From a virus (lineage: Duplodnaviria > Caudoviricetes): a stretch of DNA of 64,000 bases. The position numbers and the translations under genes were made by a program. The stretch is taken from IMG/VR virus record IMGVR_UViG_3300034061_004620. One strand, written 5' to 3'. Under the pieces are notes generated by a model. That model searched no databases and was not told where the DNA came from. It was given only the letters and a program-made list of their open reading frames with translations. Shown piece after piece: positions 7,263 through 24,824 of the stretch (positions are counted from its first letter, which is position 1; each line of letters opens with the position of its first letter).

Positions 7263-7285
7263 AACAACTATTATTGGAGAAACAC

Positions 7286-8008: not shown

Positions 8009-8670
8009 TAGTACATCCGTTACGTAATAATTATTGGACCCGAAGAGGTTACGTAACTGGTACGTGTATGTATCACAGTGAACTTAAACAGTGCTATATT
8101 AACATTCCAAAAAATGCAAGTAGTTTTTTAAGGGAAGTGTTTAAAGATACCGGTTGGAAACACATGCATCTTGGAATGACTATGGATATAGAAAACTACA
8201 TAGTAATATTACGTGATCCGGTTGAAAGATGGATTACGGGAATAGCGCAACATATCACAACCAACATCTTAGGTGAAAATTTTGGTAGTACACATTATCT
8301 TGAACAAAGTAATGAATTAGTCGATCGTTTGATTTTTGATCAAATAGTATTTGATGATCATACTGAACAGCAATCATGGTTTTTAGAACCATTTGATCTT
8401 AAAGATGGTGTATTTTTTTATTGTGATGCAAATCTCAATCAAAATCTTGATAGTTATTTTGATTATAAATTTAAATTCGCCAATAGGCCTTATGTGAATA
8501 CAAGTGCATCGCAGTTTGATAATCAGAACTTAGTTGCTTATTTCAAGAAGCTTGTATACAATAACAAAACATATTATAATAGAATTAAATCCTACTTTCT
8601 CAGAGATTACGACTTAATAAACTCTGTAAACTTCTATGACTCAAGACAATCTTACAGCCAAACAAAATGA
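8005..8670 (+). CDS. Sulfotransferase family protein
   Basis: YINIPKNASS (5'-PSB loop) and ILRDPVERWITG (3'-PB). Confidence 0.75.
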   Translation: MIVHPLRNNYWTRRGYVTGTCMYHSELKQCYINIPKNASSFLREVFKDTGWKHMHLGMTMDIENYIVILRDPVERWITGIAQHITTNILGENFGSTHYLEQSNELVDRLIFDQIVFDDHTEQQSWFLEPFDLKDGVFFYCDANLNQNLDSYFDYKFKFANRPYVNTSASQFDNQNLVAYFKKLVYNNKTYYNRIKSYFLRDYDLINSVNFYDSRQSYSQTK

Positions 8671-10201
8671 CTATGCAGTGTTTTTGCCTGCTATATCTGG
8701 ATTCTATGCAACTTTTATAGGAAAACAACGTGTTAACAATGACTATGTTGATCCTGCTCGTATGCCGCAGGCATTACAAGACATGGAGCAATTCAACTGG
8801 CTTAACAGCCATCACGCTCTCTTTCCGTACCGATGGAGTCTTTACTCCGGAGGACACGCCAACCTTGATCTAACCAAAGAAGACCCTTCGGAAGATATGG
8901 TTCGTAAGCGAGAACCAGGTACTTTTATGTTAGGTGACTCTGGCGGGTTCCAAATTGCCAAAGGCTTGTGGGAGGGCGACTGGAAAGCCAACTCAGGATG
9001 TCCTCGGGCACAAAAGAAAAGAGAATTAGTACTTAAATGGTTGGATGGTATTGCAGACTATGGAATGATTTTAGATATTCCAACTTGGGTAATTCACGAC
9101 AAAAAGGCAAGTATCGCATGTGGAATAACTACATTACACGAAGCCGTTGCTGCAACCAAATACAATAATCAATATTTTATGCAGCATCGCAAAGGTAAGA
9201 ACAATGGCGGAGCAAGATTTTTAAACGTGCTGCAAGGCGATAATCATACATCAGCCGACGAGTGGTATCAAGAAATGAAAGAGTTTTGTGATCCTAATAA
9301 ATACCCAGACACACACTTTGATGGGTGGGCCATGGGCGGACAGAACATGTGTGATGTTCATCTTGTTCTAAAACGATTGGTAGAACTTAGATATGACAAC
9401 CTGTTACAAGAAGGAGTGCATGATTGGATGCACTTTTTAGGCACAAGTAAACTTGAATGGGCAGTGTTGCTTACTGTAATACAGCGGTCAGTACGTAAAT
9501 ATGTCAATCCAAAATTTACCATTTCATTTGATTGTGCAAGTCCTTTTCTGGCTACTGCCAACGGTCAAGTTTACCACCACATCGATTTACCTCACAATGG
9601 TAAATGGTGCTACCGTATGAGCCCTATAGTAGATGATAAAAAATATGCTACTGATACCAGACTATATGGCCAAGCTGTGCTGGCAGATGGACTTATTGAT
9701 ATTTTTGATGAAAGTCCTATTAGTAAAAATATGATGATGAAGGATGTGTGTGTTTACAAACCTGGAGATCTGAACAAGAATGGCAAAGAAGGTCGAACCA
9801 GCTGGGATAGTTTTAGTTACATGCTGCTCATGGGGCATAATGTTTGGACCCACATAGAAGCAGTTCAACGAGCCAACAGAGAATTTGATGCTGGATTTCA
9901 TCCTGCCATGATGCGACATGATCATATCGAAGCAGAATATTTTGAAGATATCGTAGAACGTATATTTGCAGCGCCAACAAAGCAAACTGCATTAGATATA
10001 GTCAATGCCGACAAATATGCCAGACCAAAAGGTTATTGGGAACAGATTGTCGGCACAAGAGGTTTCAAAGGAGAAAAAACTACTAATTCTTTCACAATGG
10101 CAAATCATCATTTAGAGATAGAAGGATCAGTTAAAGTGGATAAAGTTAAAAAAGAACAACCAAAACCAATTTTATTGCCTAATTTATTTGAGGAGACCTA
10201 A
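8636..10201 (+). CDS. dpdA: TGT-like 7-deazaguanine DNA transglycosylase (DpdA type)
   Basis: GDSGGFQ, ILDIP, LQG, GWAMGG, HFLG and SFDCASP match the TGT fold; no CxCxxC zinc site; folE/queD/queE nearby. Confidence 0.8.
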   Translation: MTQDNLTAKQNDYAVFLPAISGFYATFIGKQRVNNDYVDPARMPQALQDMEQFNWLNSHHALFPYRWSLYSGGHANLDLTKEDPSEDMVRKREPGTFMLGDSGGFQIAKGLWEGDWKANSGCPRAQKKRELVLKWLDGIADYGMILDIPTWVIHDKKASIACGITTLHEAVAATKYNNQYFMQHRKGKNNGGARFLNVLQGDNHTSADEWYQEMKEFCDPNKYPDTHFDGWAMGGQNMCDVHLVLKRLVELRYDNLLQEGVHDWMHFLGTSKLEWAVLLTVIQRSVRKYVNPKFTISFDCASPFLATANGQVYHHIDLPHNGKWCYRMSPIVDDKKYATDTRLYGQAVLADGLIDIFDESPISKNMMMKDVCVYKPGDLNKNGKEGRTSWDSFSYMLLMGHNVWTHIEAVQRANREFDAGFHPAMMRHDHIEAEYFEDIVERIFAAPTKQTALDIVNADKYARPKGYWEQIVGTRGFKGEKTTNSFTMANHHLEIEGSVKVDKVKKEQPKPILLPNLFEET

Positions 10202-10414
10202 ATGTCATATAAGGGAAAAATCAAACATCTTGAAGAAATGCATCGTTTACTTGATAAACAGATTAACGAAATGCAAACCAATCATCCAGGAGTAGAAGTT
10301 GAACATCTTGCTGAATTAAAAAAGAAAAAATTGCTTTATAAAGATGAAATCAGTAGACTTAATAAATTACAATGGGAAGAAGAAAATGAACGAGTGGGCT
10401 ACGGCGACCAATAA
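10202..10414 (+). CDS. Small coiled-coil protein (DUF465/YdcH-like)
   Basis: HLEEMHRLLDKQI...LKKKKLLYKDEI; GAGGAG RBS. Confidence 0.55.
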   Translation: MSYKGKIKHLEEMHRLLDKQINEMQTNHPGVEVEHLAELKKKKLLYKDEISRLNKLQWEEENERVGYGDQ

Positions 10415-10420
10415 TCTTAA

Positions 10421-11968
10421 ATGACCAAAGTTGTAATATTAAGCGTCCCATGGTGTGAAGCTTTTCCTTTGGTAGCGCCTGCATTATTAAGTAAATGTCT
10501 ACAACAGGCAGGCATTGACTCAGCTGGATTAGATTTAAATATAAAATTTATTCAAGAATTTTATAATAAACCCTATTGGAGTAATTTAAAGATTTTTTTG
10601 TCAAATGGATATGTAGATAAACAACTAAATTATCGTAGAATGATAATTGATTTATTTAAATTTATAAAAAGAGAACTTTTGGCAATTAATTTAGAACATA
10701 ACCCAACTCATTTAGGTTTGTCTATCTTTACAAACGAAAGTATTAACTTTAGCTATCTTTTAATTCATTATATCCGAAAATATCTCCCCCATGTAAAAAT
10801 TATTGTAGGCGGACGAGGTATAGAATCTGATTGCTCTTTAGAAAAAAAACCGCATTACCAGAAATATTTTGATCACGGTCTGGCAGATTTGATAGTAGTT
10901 GGTGATGCCGAAACAGCCATAATTGAATCTATTAAATCCAATCATGATGGCATATATTTTTCTAAAAAACAAAATCAACAAGACCTTGATAATATTCCGG
11001 CTCCGGACTGGAGTCACTATAATTTTTCTTTATATAGTACGCTTACAGACGAATTTGCACCTGCTGATAGATTAGCCGCCACATTTAATCCACAGGCTAT
11101 ATCTATTACTGCAAGTAAAGGATGTGTAAGAAAATGTACATTTTGTGATGTTGCCAATTATTGGCCAAACTACATTTATCGAGACGGTGCAAATGTAGCA
11201 AGAGATATAATAACCACTTACAGAACAACTGGAATTAAAAATTTTGAATTTACAGATAATTTGATAAATGGTAGTATCTCTCACTACAGAAAAATGAACA
11301 CTATCTTGGCAGAAACTATTCCAAGAGAAATTGCCTATAGTGGGTATGCGATTTTTAGACAAAAAGAATCAATGCCGGCCGAGGATTTTAGGTTAGCCTC
11401 ATTAGCAGGATGCGAAGCATGGGGAGTTGGTGTTGAATCAGGAAGCGAAACTGTTAGATACCACATGCGGAAAAAATTCAATAACGACGACTTAGATTTT
11501 GGAGTCAAACAATTACACAAAAACAATATAAGACAAACTTGGTGTTTAATGGTTGGATATCCAACTGAAACTGAGGATGATTTTAAAGAAACACTAAATT
11601 TATTACGTAGATACAAGAATTATAATAACAACGGTATGATTTCATTAAATATTACACAACCGTTTCAATTAAATCAAAATACTCCTTTGATGCAAGAAGA
11701 AGAATTTACATCAACACTTAATTGGGCACACGAAGGAGATAGTAATCACCATGAAAGATTTTTTTGGGTCACTCCTGGAAATCCTGGTAACAATTTCTTA
11801 TCACGATATAAAAGATGGCACCAGCTTATTGATTTATCCGAAGAATTAGGTTATTCTTACCATATGCGAATGGCTCTGTTATTTTCAAAATGGCGAGACG
11901 AACTTGAAAGTTTAAAACAAATTTATGAACAATCAAATAAAAAAATTTTCTTTTTCAGTCGAGCTTAA
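10421..11968 (+). CDS. B12-binding-domain (class B-like) radical SAM protein
   Basis: N-terminal Rossmann-like region (IIVGGRG, VVGDAE), ASKGCVRKCTFCD, GVESGS, MVGYPTET. Confidence 0.85.
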   Translation: MTKVVILSVPWCEAFPLVAPALLSKCLQQAGIDSAGLDLNIKFIQEFYNKPYWSNLKIFLSNGYVDKQLNYRRMIIDLFKFIKRELLAINLEHNPTHLGLSIFTNESINFSYLLIHYIRKYLPHVKIIVGGRGIESDCSLEKKPHYQKYFDHGLADLIVVGDAETAIIESIKSNHDGIYFSKKQNQQDLDNIPAPDWSHYNFSLYSTLTDEFAPADRLAATFNPQAISITASKGCVRKCTFCDVANYWPNYIYRDGANVARDIITTYRTTGIKNFEFTDNLINGSISHYRKMNTILAETIPREIAYSGYAIFRQKESMPAEDFRLASLAGCEAWGVGVESGSETVRYHMRKKFNNDDLDFGVKQLHKNNIRQTWCLMVGYPTETEDDFKETLNLLRRYKNYNNNGMISLNITQPFQLNQNTPLMQEEEFTSTLNWAHEGDSNHHERFFWVTPGNPGNNFLSRYKRWHQLIDLSEELGYSYHMRMALLFSKWRDELESLKQIYEQSNKKIFFFSRA

Positions 11969-12308
11969 TAATCTTTGCGACAGGTATGTTATAACTGTAA
12001 ACGAACAATTAATTCCAGTCACAAATGAAGCCATAAATTATTATGAATTAGATTTAGATATAACAAAACGCAATATAATCAAAGTAACCTACCTTGAAAA
12101 GAATAAAGATTCATTTTTACACATCAAACAACTTGAATTTAATAAAATACCATTGTATAATTTAGACATATTTTCAACTTATCGCGTAAAAAACACAGTT
12201 AAAAAAACTTACGGATGGATGGATGAACTTGGTACATATACAATAAATCTTCACAGCAATGCAGTTACTCAAAATTTACTAACTTTTTTATTATCAAAGA
12301 AAGAATAA
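11925..12308 (+). CDS. Hypothetical beta-rich protein coupled to the B12 radical SAM
   Basis: 127-aa ORF overlapping the upstream gene. Confidence 0.55.
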   Translation: MNNQIKKFSFSVELNNLCDRYVITVNEQLIPVTNEAINYYELDLDITKRNIIKVTYLEKNKDSFLHIKQLEFNKIPLYNLDIFSTYRVKNTVKKTYGWMDELGTYTINLHSNAVTQNLLTFLLSKKE

Positions 12309-12309
12309 A

Positions 12310-12822
12310 ATGAACAGAAATGGTCATACTAACACAAAATTATTTGTAGGACAAGAAGTGGAACATACCCCTGCACATGGTCAAAAAACTTTGTTTGTTG
12401 TAGGAATTCAGGATAAAGACTTGATCGAAGCTGCCGCGGTTGCTCATAAATGTACACATGTGTATTTTGGTGCCAATCAAAGCTTTCCTAAAATTAATAC
12501 TAATAGTGCAGAGTGGACTCGTTGGGAGAATATGATATTTCCTTTTCTTGGCCAAGGCTATTGGTGTACATTGGATATTGATGTAAATCAAGTTGAAGGT
12601 TTATTGGAAAGTGGACTCACCGAACATTATAAATTTATTCCCATGATATCGGTAAAATTACCCTATTTACAACAATTAGGATATAATGCTACAATTAAAC
12701 TTGATGACAAAGATTTTGCTGCAACTAATCCTGGTGTATGGTGTCATCAAGTTCATGACTTAGCAAGTAGAAGAAAGTTTACCGATTGGTCAAAATATAC
12801 AAGTGACGAGATTATAAGATGA
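12310..12822 (+). CDS. Hypothetical protein directly upstream of dpdL
   Basis: 170-aa ORF; EVEHTP, HVYFGANQSF, WCTLD. Confidence 0.7.
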   Translation: MNRNGHTNTKLFVGQEVEHTPAHGQKTLFVVGIQDKDLIEAAAVAHKCTHVYFGANQSFPKINTNSAEWTRWENMIFPFLGQGYWCTLDIDVNQVEGLLESGLTEHYKFIPMISVKLPYLQQLGYNATIKLDDKDFAATNPGVWCHQVHDLASRRKFTDWSKYTSDEIIR

Positions 12823-13253
12823 ATCAAACACAAAGAGAATCAGCGGATAGAATTATGCAATTTGCCGCAAGACAAATATGGGTAACCTTCCAAAAAGAAG
12901 GTATTCATAAATACCCGGCAGCATTGGAGGATCCCGGTCTTGCGGATGTTAATTTTCTTGGTTACCCTCACCGTCACATCTTTCACTTCAGGGTGTCAAT
13001 TGATGTGTTCCACAATGATCGGGACATCGAGTTCATCCAATTCAAACGATGGCTGGAAAGCCTGTATAATAGTGGGAACCCGGTTTTAGAACTGGATTAT
13101 AAAAGCTGTGAAATGATAGCTGACGATTTATACGTCCAAATAGCTAACAGATATCCCAACAGAAATGTTACAATAAGCGTAAGTGAAGACAATGAAAATG
13201 GTTGTACGATTACTTACGCCACTCATCAACCCTCTCTATCAATAAAAATTTAA
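12819..13253 (+). CDS. dpdL: QueD-like T-fold protein, DpdL-like (predicted CDG decarboxylase)
   Basis: LGYPHRHIF fits LxxxHRHxF rather than the QueD CxxxHGH; DIEF, SCEMIA and VSEDNENG are T-fold features. Confidence 0.7.
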   Translation: MNQTQRESADRIMQFAARQIWVTFQKEGIHKYPAALEDPGLADVNFLGYPHRHIFHFRVSIDVFHNDRDIEFIQFKRWLESLYNSGNPVLELDYKSCEMIADDLYVQIANRYPNRNVTISVSEDNENGCTITYATHQPSLSIKI

Positions 13254-13263
13254 GGAGAACAAA

Positions 13264-13482
13264 ATGGCCGCAAAATGGCTAAAAAAATATCTGGTAATGA
13301 AGCCGGAAGTGTCAACTATCTTTGACGATCTTGATCGTTATCGAGAATTTTGTGTCAAATACGGACATCCATTTGATGAGCGTCATTTATACAATGAGCG
13401 TAGTCCGTGGGGCGAATTTCAGAGGAGTTTACGAGGTCGCGAACCACGTAATATGTGGTATGTTAAAAAAGAACGTACATGA
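13264..13482 (+). CDS. Hypothetical protein
   Basis: 72 aa; AAGGAG RBS. Confidence 0.65.
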   Translation: MAAKWLKKYLVMKPEVSTIFDDLDRYREFCVKYGHPFDERHLYNERSPWGEFQRSLRGREPRNMWYVKKERT

Positions 13483-13742
13483 CATTAGTTCTTAACTTTA
13501 TTAAAAATCACATTCCGGCATTTGAAATGCTGGGTGTGATTATGCGTATCATAAGTTTTACATTAGTATCATGGTTAGGGTCTGCAAGTCCGTTTATGTT
13601 TGTTTGGATATTTAATACAGTTGATGCCGTACTATTAACTTATTGTGCTATGCTTAAACAAGATCGTGCATACACCTTACTAAACGCTTTTTGGATTGTG
13701 GTTGGTATCATTGGCATTGCAAGAGCAGGAGGATGGTTATGA
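13479..13742 (+). CDS. Hypothetical membrane protein
   Basis: Three hydrophobic segments; ATGA coupling. Confidence 0.6.
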   Translation: MTLVLNFIKNHIPAFEMLGVIMRIISFTLVSWLGSASPFMFVWIFNTVDAVLLTYCAMLKQDRAYTLLNAFWIVVGIIGIARAGGWL

Positions 13743-14203
13743 GTGGTGCACTGAGAGAAAAAGACGCGGCCGATTTTGATTTAGAACAATTTACAGAAAT
13801 GTTTGATCGGGCTATAACCAGTGATGATCCCAGGGTAAAGAACGCCTTACGTCAACTGATGATGATGGTTATTCTTACCGATACCGATGATCACGAAGGC
13901 AAGCAAAGAGCCAGTCATGGTCCTCTGCGTAGAATGCAACAAGACATGCGTGACCAGTTCAGATGGATTCAGCGACTTGAAAATGACTTAGAGAGTTTAA
14001 AAAAACAAATGGCGTACAACGAAACACAAATTAAAGTACAAAGTGAACCTGGATTTAAAGCCCAAGGCGTCTCTCCCAGTGAATATTGGCAAAAGGCTAT
14101 AGCACAAACAAACATGCTAAAGCCACAAGGATTAGAAAATATTTCTAACAACGCATTACAAGGTCTAAATATCAAGGTCGCCGCAGATACAGGAGAAAAA
14201 TAA
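13739..14203 (+). CDS. Hypothetical coiled-coil protein
   Basis: Start moved to ATG 13739 (ATGA overlap). Confidence 0.6.
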   Translation: MSGALREKDAADFDLEQFTEMFDRAITSDDPRVKNALRQLMMMVILTDTDDHEGKQRASHGPLRRMQQDMRDQFRWIQRLENDLESLKKQMAYNETQIKVQSEPGFKAQGVSPSEYWQKAIAQTNMLKPQGLENISNNALQGLNIKVAADTGEK

Positions 14204-15399
14204 TGCGTAAGTTATGGTACATGGGCTTAGAGCCTTACAAAGCAAGATACACCCTGCAACTACAAGAATGGAATCGTGCTGTATTTGAACGTAGAGGTAT
14301 TGACTATGAGATTGTGCCTGGCGAAACGCTTAGTAATGATCAGGCTATTGTAACCGGCCAAGTGTTAGATGCACATGGTCGTACATATTTTGGCATGAGT
14401 CAGTTAATGAATCTCATTCGTCTAATGAAAGCAGGAGAAGTTACCAATGAAGATGTTATCTACTTTGAAGACATGTTTCAACCCGGCATCGAGAGCTTAC
14501 CTTACATTCTTGATCAAGTGTCTGCTAACATGCGTCCTCGCATTGCCGTTCGTTGTCTTGCACAAACTATTGACCCAGATGACTTTGTTCATGTCTGGGG
14601 CATGCAGGAATGGATGGGGCATTATGAAAAGATGGTAGATAGCTTTGCCGACATTGTGTTAGCTACCAATGAAGAAATGGTCATGCACATGAAAGTGGCA
14701 GGATGGAAGGCTCCCGTCTATAACATCTCAGGACTGGCATTTGGTAAGGATGAAGTTCGCAGTCGAGTGCCAGGAATGCTAAAACCTTTTGTAGAAAGAG
14801 CATTTCGTGTAGGCTTTGCTGCTCGTTGGGATCAAGAGAAACAGCCCGACTTCTACATGGATCTAATTGAAGAATATTATAAACTGCAAGCACTACCGTA
14901 TAACGATTGGCCTCAAGTAGAATTCTGTGTGTTTAGTGGCAGCAAGTTGCGTTCCAATAATAGTTCGTATATGGAACGTACACGTAGACTACAAGCAGAA
15001 GGTAAACTGACTGTATATGAAGATCTTGAAAAGAATGACTACTACGCTTTACTCAACGATACGCGAGTGCTTTTTAATTGTGCTCTTCAGGATTGGGTGT
15101 CAAATACTGCCAGCGAGGCGGACGCTCTTGGGGCTAATATCTTATACCCCGCATACCGTAGCTTTCCCGAAGCTTTTGCAAATGATCCTGAACGACTTTA
15201 TGTCCCGTGGTCGTTACGAGATGCTGTACAAAAACTTGTCCCCCTCCTCCAGCGTCCGCATGCAAACATGGGTAAATTTAGTGCGTGGAATGATGGTACC
15301 ATTGATCGTGTCTGTGACATAATCGAAGGCAAAGGCGAACAGTGGTTGCGTATGACCACCGATTATAGAAAACATACGCATGAATCAAAATACTACTAA
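14203..15399 (+). CDS. GT-B fold glycosyltransferase
   Basis: RWDQEKQPDF, VLFNCALQDWVSNTASEADALG and YPAYRSFPE resemble the GT4/phage glucosyltransferase donor-binding region. Confidence 0.75.
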   Translation: MRKLWYMGLEPYKARYTLQLQEWNRAVFERRGIDYEIVPGETLSNDQAIVTGQVLDAHGRTYFGMSQLMNLIRLMKAGEVTNEDVIYFEDMFQPGIESLPYILDQVSANMRPRIAVRCLAQTIDPDDFVHVWGMQEWMGHYEKMVDSFADIVLATNEEMVMHMKVAGWKAPVYNISGLAFGKDEVRSRVPGMLKPFVERAFRVGFAARWDQEKQPDFYMDLIEEYYKLQALPYNDWPQVEFCVFSGSKLRSNNSSYMERTRRLQAEGKLTVYEDLEKNDYYALLNDTRVLFNCALQDWVSNTASEADALGANILYPAYRSFPEAFANDPERLYVPWSLRDAVQKLVPLLQRPHANMGKFSAWNDGTIDRVCDIIEGKGEQWLRMTTDYRKHTHESKYY

Positions 15400-15409
15400 G
15401 GAGATAGAA

Positions 15410-15601: not shown

Positions 15602-15604
15602 TAA

Positions 15605-16570: not shown

Positions 16571-17147
16571 AGAAATTGCACAATTTGAACAACTATTAGC
16601 AAAGAAAACTGGGGCACCTTATGCCATCATGACCGATTGTTGCACTCATGCAATAGAGCTTTGCTTGAGATATCAACGTGTGAATCAAGTGGCCTTTACA
16701 GCCTATACCTATTTGAGTATTCCCATGCTCATGCACAAATTAGGTATCATGTACATGCACACCGATGAAGCATGGATTGGCGAATATCAATTCCACGGAA
16801 CCAACATATGGGATAGTGCCAGAAGATTAGAAAACAACATGTATAGACCTGGTATGATGCAATGTTTGAGTTTTGGTCATAACAAGCCTTTACAAATAGG
16901 CCATGGTGGTGCTATACTATTAGATGACAAAGAGGCATATGATGTTTTATTACAACAGAGATATGATGGACGGAACCTTAGTATCCAACCATGGCAAGCC
17001 CAGCAGGTTTTCAAGGTGGGTTACCATTATAGGCCAACTATTGAAGATGCAAGGATCGGTTTAGAAAAATTGTATTTTGTTAACGAACCGCCTAAATATC
17101 ACGACTATCCAGATCTTAGAAACATACAAATTATTGGAGACACTTAA
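16560..17147 (+). CDS. Short DegT/DnrJ-like PLP enzyme
   Basis: DCCTHAI, DSA, SFGHNKPLQIGHGGAIL (PLP Lys loop), GYHYR; only about 195 aa. Start uncertain (16533 or GTG 16560). Confidence 0.7.
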   Translation: MAFEEIAQFEQLLAKKTGAPYAIMTDCCTHAIELCLRYQRVNQVAFTAYTYLSIPMLMHKLGIMYMHTDEAWIGEYQFHGTNIWDSARRLENNMYRPGMMQCLSFGHNKPLQIGHGGAILLDDKEAYDVLLQQRYDGRNLSIQPWQAQQVFKVGYHYRPTIEDARIGLEKLYFVNEPPKYHDYPDLRNIQIIGDT

Positions 17148-17911
17148 TGGTTTATAACAAAGTATACGAAAGCAATGACGAAACAGGATTAGATGCAATG
17201 GCCGGTGACGGTGGTTACAAAGAATCAACATTGTCAGCTGCTATTCGTGCCAGAATGAAACGTGACGGTAAAAGGTATTGGGCCGGAGACAACATTAGTG
17301 ATTACTTACACGAAAGCGATCGAGAACATTTGATCAATGAGGCTACCGAAGCATTTGAGAAGGTGTTAGACACGCTACTAATTGATAGAGAAACAGATCC
17401 TAACAGCCAAGGTACTGCACGCCGACTTGCAAAAATGTACTTCAATGAATTGATGGCAGGAAGATATGACCCAACACCTAACGCAACTGCGTTTCCAAAT
17501 GACACCGAAGGAGCATACGACGGCATGCTCGTCGTCCGTTCTGAGCTTAAGAGTGTTTGCAGCCATCATCACCAACCTGTTACAGGCGTTGCATATATTG
17601 GCATTATTGCTGGTCCCAAACTCATTGGGCTTTCTAAATACACCCGAATTGCCCAATGGTGCGCTCGTCGTGGAACGCTACAAGAAGAACTTTGCATGGA
17701 CATTGCACGAGAAATTGAATTTGCAACTGGAAGTAAGGATGTGGCTGTATATATCCAGGCGACGCACGGATGCTGCGAGAATAGAGGAATTATGGCACAC
17801 AGTAGTCTTACCCAGACCACAGTGTTAAGAGGTGCGTTTAAGGATGATCAAAGCACCAAGAAAGAGTTCTTTGACAACATTAAACTACAACAGGAGTTTG
17901 CTCCGCGATGA
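17147..17911 (+). CDS. folE: GTP cyclohydrolase I
   Basis: CSHHHQP, IGLSKYTR, LQEEL, HGCCENRG. Confidence 0.95.
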   Translation: MVYNKVYESNDETGLDAMAGDGGYKESTLSAAIRARMKRDGKRYWAGDNISDYLHESDREHLINEATEAFEKVLDTLLIDRETDPNSQGTARRLAKMYFNELMAGRYDPTPNATAFPNDTEGAYDGMLVVRSELKSVCSHHHQPVTGVAYIGIIAGPKLIGLSKYTRIAQWCARRGTLQEELCMDIAREIEFATGSKDVAVYIQATHGCCENRGIMAHSSLTQTTVLRGAFKDDQSTKKEFFDNIKLQQEFAPR

Positions 17912-18156
17912 AATGTATCACTTGCGATCGAGAATACTCAACGACCTGCGACTGGAATCAAGGTCGTTGCCCCCATCATCCGCCATTGCTAAACGTACAA
18001 CCAAAAGATACCAGTAGAGGACATTTTTATGTTAGTCTTGCAAAAAGTGCTATTAGAATATTTGCAGGCGGCGTACTAATGGCCGGTAACATTTGGTTAG
18101 CTGGTTTATGTATTGTGTTAGCCGAATTATTAGGTGTTATTGAAGAGATTGTTTAA
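17908..18156 (+). CDS. Hypothetical protein with Cys-rich N-terminus and hydrophobic C-terminus
   Basis: CITC..C..CPHH; ATGA coupling. Confidence 0.5.
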   Translation: MKCITCDREYSTTCDWNQGRCPHHPPLLNVQPKDTSRGHFYVSLAKSAIRIFAGGVLMAGNIWLAGLCIVLAELLGVIEEIV

Positions 18157-18181
18157 GATAATTATTAATAGGAGACAACAA

Positions 18182-18859
18182 ATGGAATACGCATTGCCTT
18201 ATAGAACAGCCACCGAAATCAACAGTGCCATGGGTCGTGTATACGGTAATATGGCTTTAGCAGTTATTACCAGTATGATTGTTAGTATGTTTGTGGCATC
18301 TAACGCAGACTTAATGGCTTTCTTTTTTACCGGAATTGTAAAATGGATCGTGATCTTTGCTCCACTGGCGGCAATTTTTGCAGTAGGTTATGTGTTAGGA
18401 AATAATCCAAGCAAAGTTACCGCTCAACTATGTTTGCACGGCTTTGCGGCACTTATGGGCCTTAGTTTTGCAACTATTTTTGTAATCTATACAACAGCAA
18501 GTATTGTGAACGCATTTCTTGGTGCAGCAGTATTGTTTAGTACAATGAGTTTCTATGGCTATTTTACTAAAAAAAGTTTAGATAGTTTTGGAAAATATTT
18601 GATAGTAGGACTTATTGCAATTATTATAGTTAGCATTATTAATATTTTTATCGGATCGTCTGCATTGCAGATGTTCATCAGTGCCGCAGCAGTCTTAATC
18701 TTTTTAGGGTTAACTGCCTACGACACACAAAAAATTCGAGAGCAAATTATGGAAAGTTCAAGCCCGGCCATTGAAGCGATGGGCGCATTAACATTGTATT
18801 TAGACTTTATTAATTTGTTCTTGAGTCTATTACAATTATTCGGAGGTAGGAGAGAATAA
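18182..18859 (+). CDS. Bax inhibitor-1/YccA family membrane protein
   Basis: About 7 TM segments; AYDTQKI and ALTLYLDFINLF signature. Confidence 0.88.
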   Translation: MEYALPYRTATEINSAMGRVYGNMALAVITSMIVSMFVASNADLMAFFFTGIVKWIVIFAPLAAIFAVGYVLGNNPSKVTAQLCLHGFAALMGLSFATIFVIYTTASIVNAFLGAAVLFSTMSFYGYFTKKSLDSFGKYLIVGLIAIIIVSIINIFIGSSALQMFISAAAVLIFLGLTAYDTQKIREQIMESSSPAIEAMGALTLYLDFINLFLSLLQLFGGRRE

Positions 18860-18865
18860 TAATAA

Positions 18866-19114
18866 ATGTCAGATAATAATAATAACAATAATAATGACGA
18901 CAACGATGTCAAAGCAAATTTAAAAAAGTTTAAACCTAAAAAACCAAAAATTACGGTTCCGGAAGAGTTTTTAAAAGGAGCCAACAGTTACGATGATAAA
19001 CTTATGTTAGTAAAATACCTAACTGAAAAGGAAAAAGGTCGAGTATTACTAATTTTTAAAAAAATGATAGCTCAAGGTATGGCAGAATCGAAGAAAAAGA
19101 AGGGTTTGAAATAA
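18866..19114 (+). CDS. Hypothetical protein with poly-Asn N-terminus
   Basis: An AAT-rich tract encodes NNNNNNNDDND. Confidence 0.55.
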   Translation: MSDNNNNNNNDDNDVKANLKKFKPKKPKITVPEEFLKGANSYDDKLMLVKYLTEKEKGRVLLIFKKMIAQGMAESKKKKGLK

Positions 19115-20200
19115 TTAATCAAAGGGCATCAAAAGTTCATTAAGAATTTCTTGATGCCAATTTGTTTCCAGAAAATGATGCAAGTTATAATCCAAAATAT
19201 TTTGCAATTGAGCATAAACAAGTGTAGGATCTTTACTGCATAATTGTTCAACTTGATTCCATGCCATTTGCCATCTTACCCTGTCGTTGGGCTCATCATC
19301 ATATGATTCGTCAATAACAGTCTTTCCATCAATATCTATAACATCACCAAAAGTCTTAAATCCTAAGGATCTTAAATTACGTAGATAATATTGTCCACAA
19401 AAAGCTACAAAAGGACGACGGGCCAATATTGGTTTTATCACTTTTTCAGTGTATTGATTATAACTATTAAACGCTGTTGTTTCTGCCACAATTGAATAGT
19501 ATGAATCGTTATAGATATAATACGGAATTATTGCATATAGAGACATACCAACGACGCCACCATAGTTTATGTCTGGTACAAATCTATATAGATTGTTAAA
19601 TGTGTTTTTTTTATCATAATAATCTCCCCATGATCCCTGTGCGGGATCATCTTTGTAGTATGTAAAATAAACTTTGTTTTTGTAAATACTCTTGAGATAT
19701 AAATTGTGTACGATGTCCCTGTGATTTTTACGAGATCCAAGAAGACAATCAAACATGTAAGATCTTGGTTGCCAAGATCTTGGTAACTCTATTTTGGTAG
19801 TTAAGTCTTTGGCCCATTGATATTGGGCATAATAATTGCGAGAATCAACAAACCAAGAAATTTTAGTTTTAAAGTTATCACTGTTTTCGTCGTTGGTTAC
19901 TATATCAGTAAAAATTTTAATTTTTTTATTAGATATAATATTAATAAATTTTAGGATATAAGGATCAGTAGGTTCGGAGATGTTTAACAGCAATTTTTTT
20001 GTTTTTGGTAACAACTTATCTATTATAGGCAAGTACGAAGCATAAAAATTGGTGTAAAAACTGATACCAATAGCATCACAATCATCTGGTAAAGTTTCTA
20101 TCCAATTGGTTAGATTGTATTGACAATAATTTGAAATCTTGTTGTGATCATGATCAACAAAAATTTCACTAAAAAAGTGTTCGAGAAAAATCTTTGACAT
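19115..20200 (-). CDS. Glycosyltransferase-like protein, paralog family A
   Basis: SIVAETT..TEKVIKPILARRPF..LRNLRSLGFKTF; shared with 42702 and 51219. Confidence 0.6.
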   Translation of the reverse strand: MSKIFLEHFFSEIFVDHDHNKISNYCQYNLTNWIETLPDDCDAIGISFYTNFYASYLPIIDKLLPKTKKLLLNISEPTDPYILKFINIISNKKIKIFTDIVTNDENSDNFKTKISWFVDSRNYYAQYQWAKDLTTKIELPRSWQPRSYMFDCLLGSRKNHRDIVHNLYLKSIYKNKVYFTYYKDDPAQGSWGDYYDKKNTFNNLYRFVPDINYGGVVGMSLYAIIPYYIYNDSYYSIVAETTAFNSYNQYTEKVIKPILARRPFVAFCGQYYLRNLRSLGFKTFGDVIDIDGKTVIDESYDDEPNDRVRWQMAWNQVEQLCSKDPTLVYAQLQNILDYNLHHFLETNWHQEILNELLMPFD

Positions 20201-20222
20201 TTAAATAATAATGCTTTAATAT
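20194..20222 (+). promoter_or_regulatory. sigma70-like promoter, divergent arrangement
   Basis: TTGACA-N17-TAATAT; TATTTAT at 20228-20234 gives ATAAATA on the - strand. Confidence 0.5.
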
Positions 20223-20245
20223 ATAGGTATTTATTTAGGAAAATT

Positions 20246-21037
20246 ATGAACATAGGTATAGTCGGAATGGGCTATGTTGGGCGGGCAGTTCAGGCATCGT
20301 GGTTGGGCTCTCAACACAAAGTGAAATATTATGATCCTGCTGTGGACGGATCGGTGAGTGATTTACAAGAATTAGTTAGTGGTAATCCGTCGGCGATTTT
20401 TATATGCGTACCTACACCTTCTATAGATACTGGCGAATGTGATCTTAGTATTATAATAACAACATTAGATCAAATAAAAACAACGTATTCAGGTATGATT
20501 GTTATCAAAAGCACAGTACCACCAGATTTTTGGCAGGCTTATATCGCACATGATAACATCTTTCATGTGCCTGAATTTTTAGTAGCAAGTCGGGCCATTC
20601 AAGATTATCTTAATCCTGAATTTATTTTTATTGGTGGAAATAAAAGTCAGACTCATAAAGTTTCACAATTACTTGCTTCAAGTGCCGTTAACACAGCCGT
20701 TCCTATATATTATACAGATCTAATCACTGCAAGTCTTGTGAAATATTTTATGAATACCTTTTTAGCTACCAAAGTAACAGTACTAAACCAGTTCAGTCAA
20801 CTGAGCAACGCAATTGGTGCCAATTGGGATGATTTTACTCAAATGATTGAAATAGATAATAGAATGGGATCGAGTCATACTCAAGTTCCCGGTCCAGACG
20901 GCAAATACGGATACGGAGGTGCTTGCTTTCCCAAGGATGTTCGTGCTATAATACATTCCATGCAAAAGCACAATGTAAGTGCAGGCATAATCGAAGCAGT
21001 TGACGCTGCTAACACACAATTCAGAGGTAAAGAATGA
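20246..21037 (+). CDS. ugd: UDP-glucose/GDP-mannose dehydrogenase family, lacking the C-terminal domain
   Basis: GMGYVG, ICVPTP, IKSTVPP, PEFL, KYFMNTFLATKV, GYGGACFPKD. Confidence 0.8.
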   Translation: MNIGIVGMGYVGRAVQASWLGSQHKVKYYDPAVDGSVSDLQELVSGNPSAIFICVPTPSIDTGECDLSIIITTLDQIKTTYSGMIVIKSTVPPDFWQAYIAHDNIFHVPEFLVASRAIQDYLNPEFIFIGGNKSQTHKVSQLLASSAVNTAVPIYYTDLITASLVKYFMNTFLATKVTVLNQFSQLSNAIGANWDDFTQMIEIDNRMGSSHTQVPGPDGKYGYGGACFPKDVRAIIHSMQKHNVSAGIIEAVDAANTQFRGKE

Positions 21038-21585
21038 GCAAAGTATACTACACCAATAAACACGTTAGATCGTGGATACACTCTATCGTAAGAGAAATGA
21101 CGAATCAAAATTGGCGTCCAGATTATGTTGTAGGCTTGACCCGTGGTGGCCTTATACCTGCCGTCCTTATTAGTCAATATTTAGGCGTTCCTATGCATAC
21201 CCTGAATGTTAGTTTAAGAGATAGTAATTTAGGCCCAGAAAGCAATTTATGGATGGCCGAAGAAGCGTTTGGATATGTACCCGACGACGAAAGAAATGGT
21301 AGTGATACCAAAGTTGATCCAGCATATAGAAAAAAAATCTTAATCGTAGATGATATCAATGATACTGGTGCCACTCTCGAATGGATAAAAAATGATTGGA
21401 CCAGTGGATGTTTGCCCAACCACAGTGCGTGGGATAGCGTTTGGAATAAAACAACGCGATTTGCTGTGTTAGTGAACAACGAAGTAAGTAATTTTAAAGA
21501 CGTTGATTATGTTGGAACATCTATAAACAAACATGAAAATCCTATGTGGGCAGTATTTCCTTGGGAAGCGTGGTGGGAGAGATGA
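21034..21585 (+). CDS. Type I phosphoribosyltransferase (Gpt/Hpt-like)
   Basis: VGLTRGGLIPA, ILIVDDINDTGATL, WAVFPWE. Confidence 0.88.
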   Translation: MSKVYYTNKHVRSWIHSIVREMTNQNWRPDYVVGLTRGGLIPAVLISQYLGVPMHTLNVSLRDSNLGPESNLWMAEEAFGYVPDDERNGSDTKVDPAYRKKILIVDDINDTGATLEWIKNDWTSGCLPNHSAWDSVWNKTTRFAVLVNNEVSNFKDVDYVGTSINKHENPMWAVFPWEAWWER

Positions 21586-21920
21586 TCGCCCTGCCGCCTG
21601 GTTGTACAGTAACTTATGCTGTCTGGGTTGATGTAGATAAACTTACAGACGAAATGGTAGAGTGGTATCGTCTAATAGATGGCGAAGTATATCAAGACCG
21701 ATGGTACGATACTCGAGGTCGAGAACAATCAGTGTATTATGTAAGTTACGGTAAAGGTAAAAGATGTCACCACCATCAAAACGGCGCAGGTGGTACTAAA
21801 TTACATTTTCATGGCGACGATGCCAGTGCTGCCAGTATGTTTATTATGAAATTTTTTGAACATGTAACAAATAGCAATTTGAGAGAACAAATGGAACGGT
21901 ATAGTCGTGAAATAGCATAA
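21582..21920 (+). CDS. Hypothetical protein
   Basis: ATGA coupling at 21582. Confidence 0.6.
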   Translation: MIALPPGCTVTYAVWVDVDKLTDEMVEWYRLIDGEVYQDRWYDTRGREQSVYYVSYGKGKRCHHHQNGAGGTKLHFHGDDASAASMFIMKFFEHVTNSNLREQMERYSREIA

Positions 21921-21927
21921 ATAGTTT

Positions 21928-22104
21928 ATGTGGTCCTTAATTATAATGTTACATGCTGTTTCTCCAAACGTTCCGCCATCAAAGGGTTCAATTAGTTTTG
22001 CTACACAAAATTTTGAAGAATGTCAAAAAGTGAGAGATCAGGTAATAAAATCATGGGCATCTGACCGGTATCGTGTTACAGCAAATTGTATCCCTAACAA
22101 ATAA
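21928..22104 (+). CDS. 58-aa hypothetical protein
   Basis: MWSLIIMLHAV...EECQK...ANCIPNK; ATAAATA at 21917-21923. Confidence 0.5.
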   Translation: MWSLIIMLHAVSPNVPPSKGSISFATQNFEECQKVRDQVIKSWASDRYRVTANCIPNK

Positions 22105-22128
22105 AATAAAATAAATATTTTTCCACAC

Positions 22129-22195
22129 AGCGGCCTTTCTGGCATTCATCCCGCTTTACAAATTCTGCAAGCCTATGTTAATATTAATATAGGAG
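22129..22195 (+). promoter_or_regulatory. Candidate cis-regulatory RNA in the queD leader
   Basis: AGCGG/CCGCT stem, A-rich tail, then a CCTATGTTAATATTAATATAGG hairpin overlapping the SD. Confidence 0.45.
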
Positions 22196-22202
22196 AATCA
22201 AA

Positions 22203-22718
22203 TTGGCAAAGTTTTACTCAACAAAAACATATGGTAATGACCGAGGACTGTCATGTTGTTTTAGACAATGGCGTGCCACACACAGTCATTGTTCAACATT
22301 ACATGGCTACTCAATTGGCATTAAATTGATCTTTGAATGCGATACACTGGATGACAAAAACTGGTGTATGGACTTTGGTGGACTCAAAGAATTCAAAGCA
22401 TGGGCTGATCACATGTTTGATCACACCTTGATAGTCGCCGAAGATGATCCGATGTTGGATTTTTTTAAACACATGAACGAAATAGTAGATATTGATAGCA
22501 AAGATCATTTAAGTAAATTTCCATATGCACGTGGCGCATTATGTGATTTACGTATTGTGCCGGGTGTAGGATGCGAAATGTTTGCCAAACTATGCTATGA
22601 CAAAATGGCTGAACTATTAGCATCGGGAGAAATGCGTTATCCAATCAATCCAACAGTGCGTGTTAAATCAGTAGAAGTATTTGAACACGGTGCTAACTCA
22701 GCCACATACGAAGGTTAA
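22203..22718 (+). CDS. queD: 6-carboxytetrahydropterin synthase
   Basis: CSTLHGY, MDFGGLK, FDHT, VEVFEHGANSA; TTG start after AGGAG. Confidence 0.9.
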   Translation: MAKFYSTKTYGNDRGLSCCFRQWRATHSHCSTLHGYSIGIKLIFECDTLDDKNWCMDFGGLKEFKAWADHMFDHTLIVAEDDPMLDFFKHMNEIVDIDSKDHLSKFPYARGALCDLRIVPGVGCEMFAKLCYDKMAELLASGEMRYPINPTVRVKSVEVFEHGANSATYEG

Positions 22719-22720
22719 CA

Positions 22721-23584
22721 ATGAGCAAAATTAAAGTAGCAGAACTGTTTTACAGCATACAAGGTGAAGGACGCTACATGGGTGTTCCCAGTGTGTTCTT
22801 GCGTACATTTGGATGTAATTTTAAATGTGCAGGCTTTGGTATGCCACGTGGCGAAATCAGTATTGAAGCAGATGATGTTGCATACACACATGCAAATATT
22901 GAATACTTTCACAAATATGAAGAACTTCCGTTAGTTAAAACTGGTTGTGATAGTTATGCCAGTTGGCACCCGGCATTCAAGGATCTTAGTCCGGTAATAG
23001 ATTCTGACGGTATTGTAGAGCGCATCATGCAAATTCTTCCGCACGGAAAATGGAAGGATGAACATCTGGTAATCACTGGTGGTGAACCTCTGTTAGGATG
23101 GCAGCGTAGTTATCCAGACTTGCTCAACCACCCACGTATGCGTAAGTTAAAAGAAATTACTTTTGAAACTAACGGTACTCAAGAGTTAACTGCTGATTTT
23201 GCAGATTATCTTGTACAATGGCAAATGCCTGGTCCTAATTTTTCTCGCGAGGTAACTTTTAGTGTAAGTGCAAAGTTACCAGCCAGTGGAGAATCGTGGA
23301 TCGAGGCTATTCGTCCAGAGATTGTACGTCAATATCAGACTATTGGACATACATATCTTAAGTTTGTTGTAGCCACAGATGAAGATGTAAAGGATGCGCT
23401 AAAGGCAGTTGAACAATATCGCAATGCCGGCTTTCATGGATCTGTTTATCTAATGCCCGTAGGTGGAGTAGAAAGTGTTTATTCATTAAATAATAGGCGA
23501 GTGGCAGAATTAGCTATGCGACATGGATTACGTTATAGTGATAGATTGCAAGTACCATTATTCAAGAACGAATGGGGAACGTAA
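22721..23584 (+). CDS. queE: 7-carboxy-7-deazaguanine synthase (radical SAM)
   Basis: ELFYSIQGEG, FLRTFGCNFKC...GCDS, ITGGEP, ETNG. Confidence 0.92.
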   Translation: MSKIKVAELFYSIQGEGRYMGVPSVFLRTFGCNFKCAGFGMPRGEISIEADDVAYTHANIEYFHKYEELPLVKTGCDSYASWHPAFKDLSPVIDSDGIVERIMQILPHGKWKDEHLVITGGEPLLGWQRSYPDLLNHPRMRKLKEITFETNGTQELTADFADYLVQWQMPGPNFSREVTFSVSAKLPASGESWIEAIRPEIVRQYQTIGHTYLKFVVATDEDVKDALKAVEQYRNAGFHGSVYLMPVGGVESVYSLNNRRVAELAMRHGLRYSDRLQVPLFKNEWGT

Positions 23585-24818: not shown

Positions 24819-24824
24819 TACTGC

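Follow-up and report, generated by a model that had tools for sequence, protein, structure and literature searches.

FolE, QueD and QueE convert GTP into 7-carboxy-7-deazaguanine (CDG). Cellulophaga phage phiST, whose DNA contains plain dDG (PMC10516641), has this CDG pathway without QueC, together with a DpdL that bears the motif LxxxHRHxF, a QueD with the variant motif CxxxHGY and a DNA transglycosylase of the TGT superfamily. The DNA of the Pseudomonas jumbo phage PA5oct (Wroclawvirus) is resistant to enzymes whose cleavage sites contain G, and its G is regarded as modified (PMC12191111). In its gp168-gp162 locus, a DpdA-like gene (gp168), a glycosyltransferase-like gene (gp167) and dpdL (gp166) are adjacent; the product of gp167 is annotated as hypothetical, and in a sister phage as a 'glycosyltransferase family 4 protein'. 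Two further systems combine a modified base with a sugar: phage T4, in which the GT-B α- and β-glucosyltransferases add the hexose of a UDP-sugar to a non-canonical base, giving glucosyl-hydroxymethylcytosine, and the naturally occurring glycosylated 7-deazapurines huimycin and dapiramicin, which are N2-glycosides, the sugar of huimycin being assigned to HuiG (PMC7439116).

The DNA analysed here, referred to as the window, is a stretch of 64,000 nucleotides (IMG/VR record IMGVR_UViG_3300034061_004620). Its positions 8636-23584 are a DpdL-type 7-deazaguanine DNA-modification module without QueC, carried by an uncultured PA5oct-like jumbo phage, and the backbone of this phage from PolB to the 5'-3' exonuclease is syntenic with that of PA5oct. 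A TGT-fold DpdA, DpdL, FolE, QueD and QueE are all found in one run, which additionally encodes a GT-B glycosyltransferase (GT), GalE, a shortened DegT-like protein, a truncated UGDH-like protein, a phosphoribosyltransferase (PRTase) and a B12-type radical SAM protein. HMM, motif and structure-model searches located all of these genes where a first-pass annotation had put them, and the gene identities and the window searches agree with its reading of the locus as DpdL-type and QueC-less. Its description of the run as co-directional is right for most genes, which lie on the plus strand, and fails for a 361-aa ORF on the minus strand (19115-20200). Compared with PA5oct, the identities are 34% for the DpdA-like protein (gp168), 23% for the GT, 57% for DpdL and 33% for QueE (gp162); unlike the window, PA5oct has at this locus no full GalE, no DegT-like gene, no B12-type radical SAM gene and no 170-aa protein of the kind described below. 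Gene content was counted in 42 close relatives, each with at least 6 kb of downstream flank, and in 80 diverse loci on viral contigs (IMG/VR) retrieved via distant members of the GT family.

The CDG genes of the window comprise folE, for GTP cyclohydrolase I (17147-17911, +; PF01227 E 4e-39, NF006824 E 4e-40), a queD-type gene for CPH4 synthase (22203-22718, +; PF01242 E 3e-16, TIGR03367 E 6e-9) and a queE-type gene for CDG synthase (22721-23584, +), whose best NCBIfam matches are all QueE models, each under its cut-off. QueD carries CxxxHGY instead of CxxxHGH, the variant seen in phiST and also in ACP17 and BUCT-ZZ01, and the cysteine spacing of QueE is unusual (C32-x3-C36-x39-C76). The PP-loop motif SGGxDS of QueC is absent from every ORF of at least 80 aa of the window, and E. 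coli QueC and QueF used as tblastn queries against it gave nothing below E = 1, which bears out the earlier claim that neither gene is present there; neither was found in any of the 160 loci examined. A divergent QueC-like ORF lies about 45 kb from the locus in one of the two complete relatives, so that a preQ0 route would be possible in the window phage. The purine-type PRTase (21034-21585, +; PF00156 E 2e-12; best NCBIfam match xanthine PRTase) has homologues in BUCT-ZZ01 and PA5oct (gp163) and was assigned in 12 of the 80 diverse loci, in jumbo and cyanophage-like lineages.

The DpdA-like DNA-guanine transglycosylase (521 aa; 8636-10201, +) finds no match in Pfam, PHROG or NCBIfam searches and is assigned by its AlphaFold2 model (pLDDT 84), by Foldseek, where the top 50 PDB matches are all the tRNA-guanine transglycosylase (TGT) of Z. 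mobilis (E about 7e-9), and by the invariant residues D101, D147 and D299, which stand within GDSGGFQ, LDIP and SFDCASP, respectively. The profile of its family matches ACP17 gp123 (E 4e-7), whereas the 259-aa DpdA3 of phiST has no detectable sequence similarity to it.

DpdL (12819-13253, +; phrog_17812, E 4e-37), a QueD-like T-fold protein proposed to be a CDG decarboxylase, shows the LxxxHRHxF motif as FLGYPHRHIF; by tblastn it is 58.6% identical to the DpdL of ACP17 and 37% to that of phiST, and all members of the family share H30, H51, R52, H53 and F55. Decarboxylation by DpdL is itself a proposal, and E. coli co-expressing DpdL and DpdA made no dDG with either the ACP17 or the phiST proteins (Cui et al. 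2023, PMC10516641), a point against the explanation favoured below. The start of dpdL is overlapped by o170 (12310-12822, +), which encodes a 170-aa protein of unknown fold without a match in the Pfam search. It is kept in all 42 close relatives, is homologous to ACP17 gp122 (E 2e-13) and stands between DpdL and the GT in 35 of the 80 diverse loci; in six it is fused to the C-terminus of DpdL. These arrangements point to o170 as a newly recognised second partner of DpdL, beside the GT. Downstream of dpdL, a conserved basic protein of 72 aa (13264-13482, +; pI 9.6; function unknown) is encoded in 42/42 close relatives and in none of the 80 diverse loci.

The phage-specific glycosyltransferase (14203-15399, +), GT4-like and of retaining type, has no match in HMM searches, and in Pfam none at all, the T4 glucosyltransferase families included. 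Its AlphaFold2 model (pLDDT 95) finds BshA, MshA, glycogen synthase and PimA by Foldseek (E about 1e-12), with VIA-align Z scores up to 26.7 across 342 residues. The T4 α-glucosyltransferase AGT (1y6f) is also a structural neighbour, at Z 20.7, and the GT is nearer to the small-molecule and lipid enzymes of GT4 (Z 24-27); since small-molecule enzymes (BshA, MshA, pterin glucosyltransferase) and the DNA enzyme AGT all fall at Z 20-27, the fold search separates neither kind from the other. R208 and K213 are invariant in the family, D297 and E305 nearly so, and the resulting R-x4-K and D-x7-E motifs are retained across members about 30% identical; this layout presumably corresponds to the NDP-sugar site of GT4 enzymes, and the GT looks catalytically intact. 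The N-terminal domain, by which GT-B enzymes bind the acceptor, matches the donor domain in conservation, with 21 versus 19 positions conserved at 90% or more. With a family median pI of 5.8, and 5.3 for the window protein, the enzyme is acidic, which in our view is no pointer to DNA binding. The family is large, falling into about 798 clusters when grouped at 50% identity, and almost phage-only: 185,579 prokaryote genomes gave two matches, both on metagenome-derived contigs.

Conservation of the linkage between the GT and the deazaguanine genes was one of the points on which the first-pass annotation had staked its reading, and it holds. DpdL lies within 8 kb of the GT in 76 of the 80 diverse loci, and when the GTs are clustered at 70% identity, 49 of 52 clusters have it nearby. 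QueE is a neighbour of the GT in 63 loci, FolE in 60 and QueD in 50; a phrog_887 DpdA directly follows the GT in 50 loci, and a further 18 have a DpdA of another type, the commonest order being QueD-QueE-FolE-DpdL-GT-DpdA. The linkage extends to seven cultured phage lineages, and the GT adjoins DpdL in ACP17, PA5oct, Xanthomonas X1 and BUDD, BCSR5, Phosso and BUCT-ZZ01. On the other hand, six phages with DpdL, namely phiST, RHph_I1_18, Bakedbeans, Ahp1, D479 and MA9V-3, gave no match to the GT profile anywhere in their complete genomes. The association is thus one-sided, the GT coming with DpdL and DpdL occurring also without the GT, and because these six phages include phiST with its plain dDG, the GT is placed downstream of DpdL. 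Unlike the window, the phiST genome has no GT family member and no homologue of o170, and no GalE-like gene is annotated at its locus. No published connection between this GT and DpdL was found in the literature searched, and its presence beside DpdL in many unrelated phages suggests an undescribed sugar-bearing DNA base.

GalE (15605-16570, +; PF01370 E 8e-46), a homologue of UDP-glucose 4-epimerase with a full-length match to solved enzymes of this activity (E 1e-59), is conserved inside the clade of the window, in 42/42 close relatives, and directly follows the GT in 16 of the 80 diverse loci, in two lineages. Judged by gene neighbourhoods, the GT, the 170-aa protein and, in two lineages, GalE are the only partners that travel with DpdL.

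The explanation we favour, to which we give about an even chance, is a DpdL-branch module whose GT most likely adds a hexose to deazaguanine. FolE, QueD and QueE, assigned from family knowledge, would convert GTP into CDG, from which, without QueC, DpdL would generate the 7-deazaguanine base by the chemistry proposed for phiST; o170, fused or adjacent to DpdL, would probably take part in this step. The TGT-fold DpdA would swap guanine in the phage DNA for the deazaguanine base, and the PRTase would probably salvage the guanine thus freed. The GT would act after DpdL, most likely placing on the deazaguanine a hexose that in the window phage is probably galactose, or glucose interconverted by the adjacent GalE, and the transfer could take place either on the free base before its insertion or on the base already in DNA. 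As plain 7-deazaguanine has no hydroxyl, the acceptor would be N2, O6 or a pyrrole carbon, unless the DpdL product is something else. The folds, motifs, gene content and linkage are results of this analysis; the presence of a sugar in the DNA, its acceptor and the attachment atom are inferred. Transfer of a hexose to a non-canonical base, as in T4, is for the window only a proposal, and in contrast to T4 no hydroxymethyl-pyrimidine pathway is linked to the window GT.

The DNA might instead, like that of phiST, contain plain dDG (or dCDG), with the GT in the pathway and no sugar left in the DNA, the enzyme glycosylating a transient intermediate, detoxifying or sequestering the free base, or holding DpdL and DpdA together as a scaffold. 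Indeed, phiST, which has DpdL and DpdA3, produces dDG without a GT, 7-deazaguanine offers no obvious O-acceptor, and the GT is acidic. The failure of DpdL and DpdA from the GT-bearing ACP17 to give dDG in E. coli, where an extra factor may be needed, would also fit, but the test failed likewise for the GT-less phiST. As the donor-site motif has stayed intact across members about 30% identical, and the recruitment of GalE beside the GT in two lineages points to real sugar consumption, we consider this outcome unlikely.

A diffusible glycosylated deazapurine of the huimycin/dapiramicin kind, directed against the host or competitors rather than placed in DNA, has a precedent in the N2-glycosylated product of FolE, QueD, QueE and a glycosyltransferase (PMC7439116), and most of the enzymes structurally close to the GT act on small molecules. 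HuiG, to which the sugar at the base N2 of a deazapurine core is assigned, is comparable to the window GT in the role proposed for the latter. Unlike the window, the actinomycete clusters (FolE, QueD, QueE, QueC, a methyltransferase and HuiG) have QueC, a preQ0 core, no DpdA and a free metabolite as product, and the family of the window GT is nearly absent from bacterial genomes. Furthermore, a DpdA/TGT gene goes with the GT in the 50 and 18 diverse loci given above, the modules are embedded among replication genes and the DNA of PA5oct is itself modified at G, all of which makes a diffusible product improbable.

It is still more improbable that the GT, GalE, the DegT-like and the UGDH-like genes form an unrelated glycan pathway, for virion proteins or the host envelope, placed here by genome organisation. 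Rarity or confinement to one clade would be expected of accessory glycan genes and is seen for the DegT-like and UGDH-like genes, for which such a role is possible; for the GT it is contradicted by the linkage to DpdL across at least three phage backbones, and most diverse loci have no other sugar gene nearby. Least probable of all is a pre-replicative route, in which the PRTase would make a CDG or 7-deazaguanine nucleotide that is decarboxylated, reduced, phosphorylated and incorporated by PolB, with DpdA secondary, for although tubercidin clusters likewise lack QueC and build on CDG by means of a PRTase and a decarboxylase (bioRxiv 10.64898/2026.04.15.718813) and the PRTase recurs in jumbo and cyanophage-like lineages, most compact modules lack a PRTase and DpdA is present in every phage known to bear 7-deazaguanine bases (PMC10516641).

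Returning to the favoured DpdL-branch module, the suggestion that all the interleaved enzymes serve one large pathway did not survive the counts. The B12-binding radical SAM gene (10421-11968, +; PF04055, PF02310; best NCBIfam match a PhpK-family P-methyltransferase model), followed by a 127-aa partner ORF (11925-12308, +), is at the locus in 6/42 close relatives, elsewhere in others, and in 0/80 diverse loci. The UGDH-like gene (20246-21037, +), whose 263-aa product resembles a truncated UDP-glucose/GDP-mannose dehydrogenase with Pfam matches limited to the N-terminal and central domains (PF03721, PF00984), occurs in 3/42 and 0/80. The DegT/DnrJ-like protein (16533-17147, +; PF01041 E 2e-13, in two pieces) is shortened to 204 aa versus about 370, its alignment to the aminotransferase 9bgp covers the region with the SFxxxK motif, and it is restricted to the clade (25/42 and 0/80). 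Variable accessory genes encode a small DUF465 protein (10202-10414, +; PF04325 E 9e-11; 20/42 close relatives) and a Bax1-I/YccA-type membrane protein (18134-18859, +; PF01027 E 1e-50; 18/42). The genes for the B12-type radical SAM, UGDH-like and Bax1-I proteins and the minus-strand gene are insertions that vary between strains and do not belong to the pathway. The last of these, the 361-aa ORF of unknown function, has no match in Pfam, PHROG or NCBIfam, is present in none of the 80 diverse loci and in three of the 42 close relatives, and lies in AT-rich DNA, the GC fraction being 0.33 over 18001-20000.

The pathway we propose for this locus combines the synthesis of a deazaguanine base, its insertion into DNA and its decoration with a sugar. 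FolE, QueD and QueE would make 7-carboxy-7-deazaguanine (CDG), which DpdL, together with a 170-aa protein (o170), would convert to the 7-deazaguanine base; the DpdA-like transglycosylase would put this base into DNA, and a phage-specific glycosyltransferase (GT) would add a hexose, either to the free base or on the DNA. T4, which glucosylates bases already in DNA, is the precedent for the DNA-level reaction. The precedent for action on the free base is provided by huimycin and dapiramicin, N2-glycosylated deazapurine bases, the sugar of huimycin being assigned to the glycosyltransferase of its cluster (PMC7439116). The acidic character of the GT family (median pI 5.8) and the lack of a hydroxyl on 7-deazaguanine both count against the DNA-level reaction, or against any sugar at all. 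The weaker claim, that the GT functions in the pathway, we predict with good confidence; that the DNA of the GT-bearing phages contains a sugar-bearing deazaguanine is a proposition that we infer with evenly divided expectations.

The gene list of the first-pass annotation agrees with our ORF listing and HMM scans. A family-B DNA polymerase (3598-6258) and a methyltransferase (6281-7237) and a 244-aa homologue of a PA5oct structural protein (7274-8008) precede the gene of the 521-aa DpdA-like protein (8636-10201), which has no HMM match. Next come DUF465 (10202-10414), a B12-binding radical SAM enzyme (10421-11968), a 127-aa ORF (11925-12308), o170 (12310-12822) and a 72-aa ORF (13264-13482), the last two flanking the 144-aa T-fold protein DpdL (12819-13253). 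The 398-aa GT (14203-15399), again with no HMM match, is followed by genes for a GalE-type epimerase (15605-16570), a 204-aa DegT-like protein (16533-17147), FolE (17147-17911) and a Bax1-I / YccA-family membrane protein (18134-18859; PF01027, E 1e-50), by a 361-aa ORF (19115-20200), and by genes for a 263-aa UGDH-like protein (20246-21037), a PRTase (21034-21585), a QueD-like protein (22203-22718) and a QueE-like protein (22721-23584). A 5'-3' exonuclease (24825-25814) lies beyond them. The co-directional run described at first stands on the plus strand for every listed gene except the 361-aa ORF, which is on the minus strand.

No near-identical DNA turned up when the locus was compared with 50,697 phage records. 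At least 585 relatives of the DpdA-like protein are present in IMG/VR, some of them on contigs that are about 350 kb long and have terminal repeats, and its search matched at least 7,349 protein clusters. The block from the polymerase to the exonuclease is syntenic with the Pseudomonas jumbo phage PA5oct, in which gp168 (DpdA-like), gp167 (the GT) and gp166 (DpdL) adjoin each other. The DNA of PA5oct resisted several restriction enzymes, in a pattern pointing to modified G, and the phage is a target of END nucleases (PMC12191111).

The linkage of the GT to DpdL, whose conservation the first-pass annotation had proposed to measure, holds across very different phages. IMG/VR was queried with an alignment led by a distant GT member, 30-41% identical to its matches, giving 80 diverse loci on contigs very different in size and architecture, the ORFs of which were labelled by small HMMs made from window and cultured-phage genes. 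In 76 of the 80, DpdL, mostly with its HRHxF signature kept, is no more than 8 kb from the GT, and it is near the GT in 49 of the 52 GT clusters at 70% identity; QueE (63 of 80), FolE (60) and QueD (50) are also found near it, the commonest order being QueD-QueE-FolE-DpdL-GT. Among cultured phages, the GT stands beside or near DpdL in ACP17, the PA5oct group, Xanthomonas X1 and BUDD, Burkholderia BCSR5, Sinorhizobium Phosso and Synechococcus BUCT-ZZ01. Searched with the GT profile, ACP17, PA5oct, Phosso and BUCT-ZZ01 give matches, and the complete genomes of the DpdL phages phiST, RHph_I1_18, Bakedbeans, Ahp1, D479 and MA9V-3 give none; the GT is thus nearly always with DpdL, whereas DpdL is often without the GT. 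This one-sided association is what a decorating enzyme acting after DpdL would be expected to show. In the GT-less phiST, dG is fully replaced by dDG, the plain 7-deazaguanine nucleoside (PMC10516641), so that one further step is predicted for the GT-bearing phages.

The GT itself, folded from its alignment with a pLDDT of 95, gives a model with the two Rossmann-like domains of a predicted GT-B enzyme. Its nearest neighbours are the GT4 retaining enzymes BshA, MshA, PimA and the glycogen and sucrose-phosphate synthases (Foldseek E about 1e-12), with VIA-align Z scores of 26.7 for sucrose-phosphate synthase and 25.7 for BshA over 329-342 aligned residues. The T4 alpha-glucosyltransferase is also a structural neighbour (Z 20.7), but an acceptor of the T4 AGT/BGT type would require a hydroxymethyl-pyrimidine pathway, and none is present among the genes identified at the window locus. 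Across 113 sequences, R208 and K213 show no variation, D297 and E305 almost none; assigned by pattern, these residues fit the donor-site motifs R-x4-K, whose residues bind phosphate, and EX7E. The N-terminal domain is conserved as strongly as the donor domain, which is consistent with one fixed acceptor. At E 0.01 or better, the GT has no match in Pfam (including the glycosyltransferase group 1 models), NCBIfam or PHROG, and at the sequence level it forms a separate, phage-specific family, which at 50% identity comprises 798 clusters (E of 1e-3 or better). A scan of prokaryotes with a single peptide pattern, covering one genome per species for 185,579 species, gave two matches only, both on metagenome-derived contigs. 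Complex prediction of the GT with DpdL and o170 gave no call either way (score 0.00).

The second partner of DpdL is o170, whose gene overlaps the start of dpdL in the window and whose product is homologous to gp122 of ACP17. An iterated HMM search, extended with matched domain segments only, detects the o170 family at 35 of the 80 diverse loci, mostly between DpdL and the GT; in six loci it is joined to DpdL as a C-terminal domain. For one such fusion (locus L105), hhalign gives a probability of 99.9% for DpdL over residues 2-107 and of 91% for o170 over residues 129-223. Pfam scans of the family members returned no credible family. All scores of a feature search were below 0.9; its only named leads, an ADP-ribosyl-cyclase family (0.80) and the TET-associated glycosyltransferase family (0.82), were taken as noise. 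A Phosso 'glycosylase' considered as a homologue does not align (16% identity). DpdL has been proposed as the CDG decarboxylase by Cui et al., who obtained no dDG on co-expressing DpdL and DpdA of phiST or ACP17 and considered that extra enzymes may be needed (PMC10516641); for ACP17, gp122 and gp124, its o170 homologue and its GT, are the obvious candidates.

Membership of the module was counted among the 80 closest loci, 42 of which extend at least 6 kb downstream of DpdA. o170, DpdL, the 72-aa ORF, the GT and GalE each occur in all 42, FolE in 39, the DegT-like gene in 25, the Bax1-I / YccA gene, embedded in the locus, in 18, and the PRTase in 17, a count limited by flank length. The B12-radical SAM enzyme is at the locus in 6 of the 42 (and elsewhere in some genomes), the UGDH-like protein and the minus-strand ORF in 3 each; given such low counts, these three are regarded as strain-variable insertions, and a single pathway using all the interleaved enzymes is not supported. 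GalE, homologous over its full length to UDP-glucose 4-epimerases of solved structure (E 1e-59), also directly follows the GT in 16 of the 80 diverse loci. These fall into two lineages, one of jumbo phages carrying the window-type DpdA, the other of cyanophage-like contigs whose DpdA is of the ACP17/BUCT-ZZ01 type. This position points to a UDP-hexose donor for which the C4 epimer is important. The DegT-like gene is restricted to the clade of the window, and its product aligns to full-length enzymes in their N-terminal region and around the lysine motif, without the stretch between the two.

Concerning the supply of the base, the product of 12819-13253 carries FLGYPHRHIF, which fits the signature LxxxHRHxF of DpdL as opposed to the CxxxHGH of QueD, and is 58.6% identical to the DpdL of ACP17 and 37% to that of phiST. 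By motif and homology it is a DpdL as found in the DpdL branch (Hutinet 2019; Cui 2023). The assignment of FolE by the HMM scans is clear; for the QueD-like and QueE-like proteins, the best NCBIfam matches are the right models, but below their cut-offs, and on these matches the locus has the FolE, QueD and QueE set of that branch. The motif of the window QueD is CxxxHGY and not CxxxHGH, a variant common to the clade of the window, phiST, ACP17 and BUCT-ZZ01, HGH being kept by 41 of 50 QueDs of compact uncultured modules; it is no argument against QueD function, because phiST has the same variant and makes dDG. The usual QueE motif is CX3CX2C. The window QueE has only three cysteines, spaced as C32-x3-C36-x39-C76; the QueEs of PA5oct and BUCT-ZZ01 have the same long insert ahead of the third Cys, that of phiST has a 7-residue insert, and that of ACP17 has the standard motif.

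QueC and QueF had been reported as missing from the window, and both searches made for them came back empty: no SGGxDS PP-loop occurs among the window ORFs of at least 80 aa, and tblastn of the window with E. coli QueC and QueF gave nothing below E = 1. Neither gene has a homologue in 160 related loci. PF06508 was matched in one of five long relatives, the complete 355 kb genome L084, which has DpdL and the GT; the ORF concerned (L084:1057-1710, 218 aa, with VSGGIDS and a C-terminal Cys cluster) is divergent, lies about 45 kb from DpdA and is without a counterpart in the window and in the second complete relative (353 kb). The absence of QueC holds for the window and for all the neighbourhoods examined. 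Xanthomonas phage X1 encodes, between FolE and the GT-DpdA-DpdL genes (L176:2843-3376), a 177-aa protein with the annotation PAPS-reductase family; this is a PP-loop family, and the protein may stand in for QueC in that lineage.

The 521-aa protein was folded from its alignment with a pLDDT of 84, and the top 50 PDB neighbours of the model are all Zymomonas TGT (E about 7e-9). D101 (GDSGGFQ), D147 (LDIP) and D299 (SFDCASP) are invariant in relatives about 35% identical to it, and by residue numbering they would parallel D102, D156 and D280 of the Z. mobilis TGT. The family profile matches gp123 of ACP17 (E 4e-7) and, at E 0.003, UTS52034 of BUCT-ZZ01. The exclusively TGT fold neighbours, the invariant aspartates and the gp123 match together indicate a DpdA-type enzyme, and the product of 8636-10201 is, according to the model, a TGT-superfamily protein with putative catalytic aspartates. 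To phiST CGPG_00065, a reference protein for the DpdA3 subfamily (Cui 2023), the profile gives no match (E 0.71). Clustering of unlabelled neighbours revealed another family, with members about 300 aa long and encoded immediately behind the GT in 50 of the 80 diverse loci, which we call short DpdA because all 33 members tested match phrog_887, 'queuine tRNA-ribosyltransferase'. No sequence homology is claimed between the window-type and short families (hhalign probability 1.3%), though their motifs were aligned. PDB searches by single sequence and by profile with the DpdA-like protein, the GT and the short DpdA gave nothing useful.

We tentatively extend this proposal, at slightly less than even confidence, to a class of phages that would replace guanine with glycosylated 7-deazaguanine by a six-to-seven-gene module, QueD-QueE-FolE-DpdL-(o170)-GT-DpdA, of which the GT would be the marker and o170 a second pathway enzyme; PA5oct, ACP17, the Xanthomonas jumbo phages, BUCT-ZZ01 and thousands of uncultured relatives would belong to it. 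To our knowledge, eight 7-deazaguanine bases are known in DNA, none of them sugar-bearing, and DpdL, the proposed maker of dDG, has never been made to work outside the phage. In most lineages DpdL is accompanied by two unstudied proteins, the phage-only GT4-like GT and o170, sometimes fused to it, and these companions offer a concrete possible reason for the failed reconstitution. The association of the three predicts a new hypermodified base, of relevance to the escape of phages from restriction and CRISPR, to what modification-dependent nucleases of the END family recognise in PA5oct, and to the annotation of a very abundant group of uncultured jumbo phages. A full-text literature search, with most subscription journals outside its coverage, found neither a link between any glycosyltransferase and DpdL nor a glycosylated deazaguanine in DNA.

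Several minor observations accompany these results. A promoter and terminator scan of 7000-25000 gave the same outcome as shuffled sequence, and an Rfam scan of 8000-25000 no match at E up to 1; a preQ1-riboswitch-like leader considered ahead of queD (22100-22205) thus has no support from a curated model. Upstream of the DpdA-like gene of BUCT-ZZ01 lies UTS52035 (L083:7010-8353), which has a weak match to the GT profile in the C-terminal half of that profile (E about 1e-5); this phage may have two GT-B enzymes in its cluster. DpdL forms the C-terminal domain of longer proteins in the Vibrio phage Bakedbeans (gp176, L179:5212-6363, about 270 extra N-terminal residues) and the Chryseobacterium phage MA9V-3 (L182:5431-6312, about 190), and is followed in the GT-less Rhizobium phage RHph_I1_18 by a gene annotated as a macro-domain (Appr-1-p processing) enzyme (L175:7408-8232). 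Finally, the window contains unusually many ORFs of 385-512 aa with CxxxCxxC radical-SAM motifs, at about 1224 and 37771 on the plus strand and, six in succession on the minus strand, at about 50165, 52992, 54212, 55609, 56990 and 58603.
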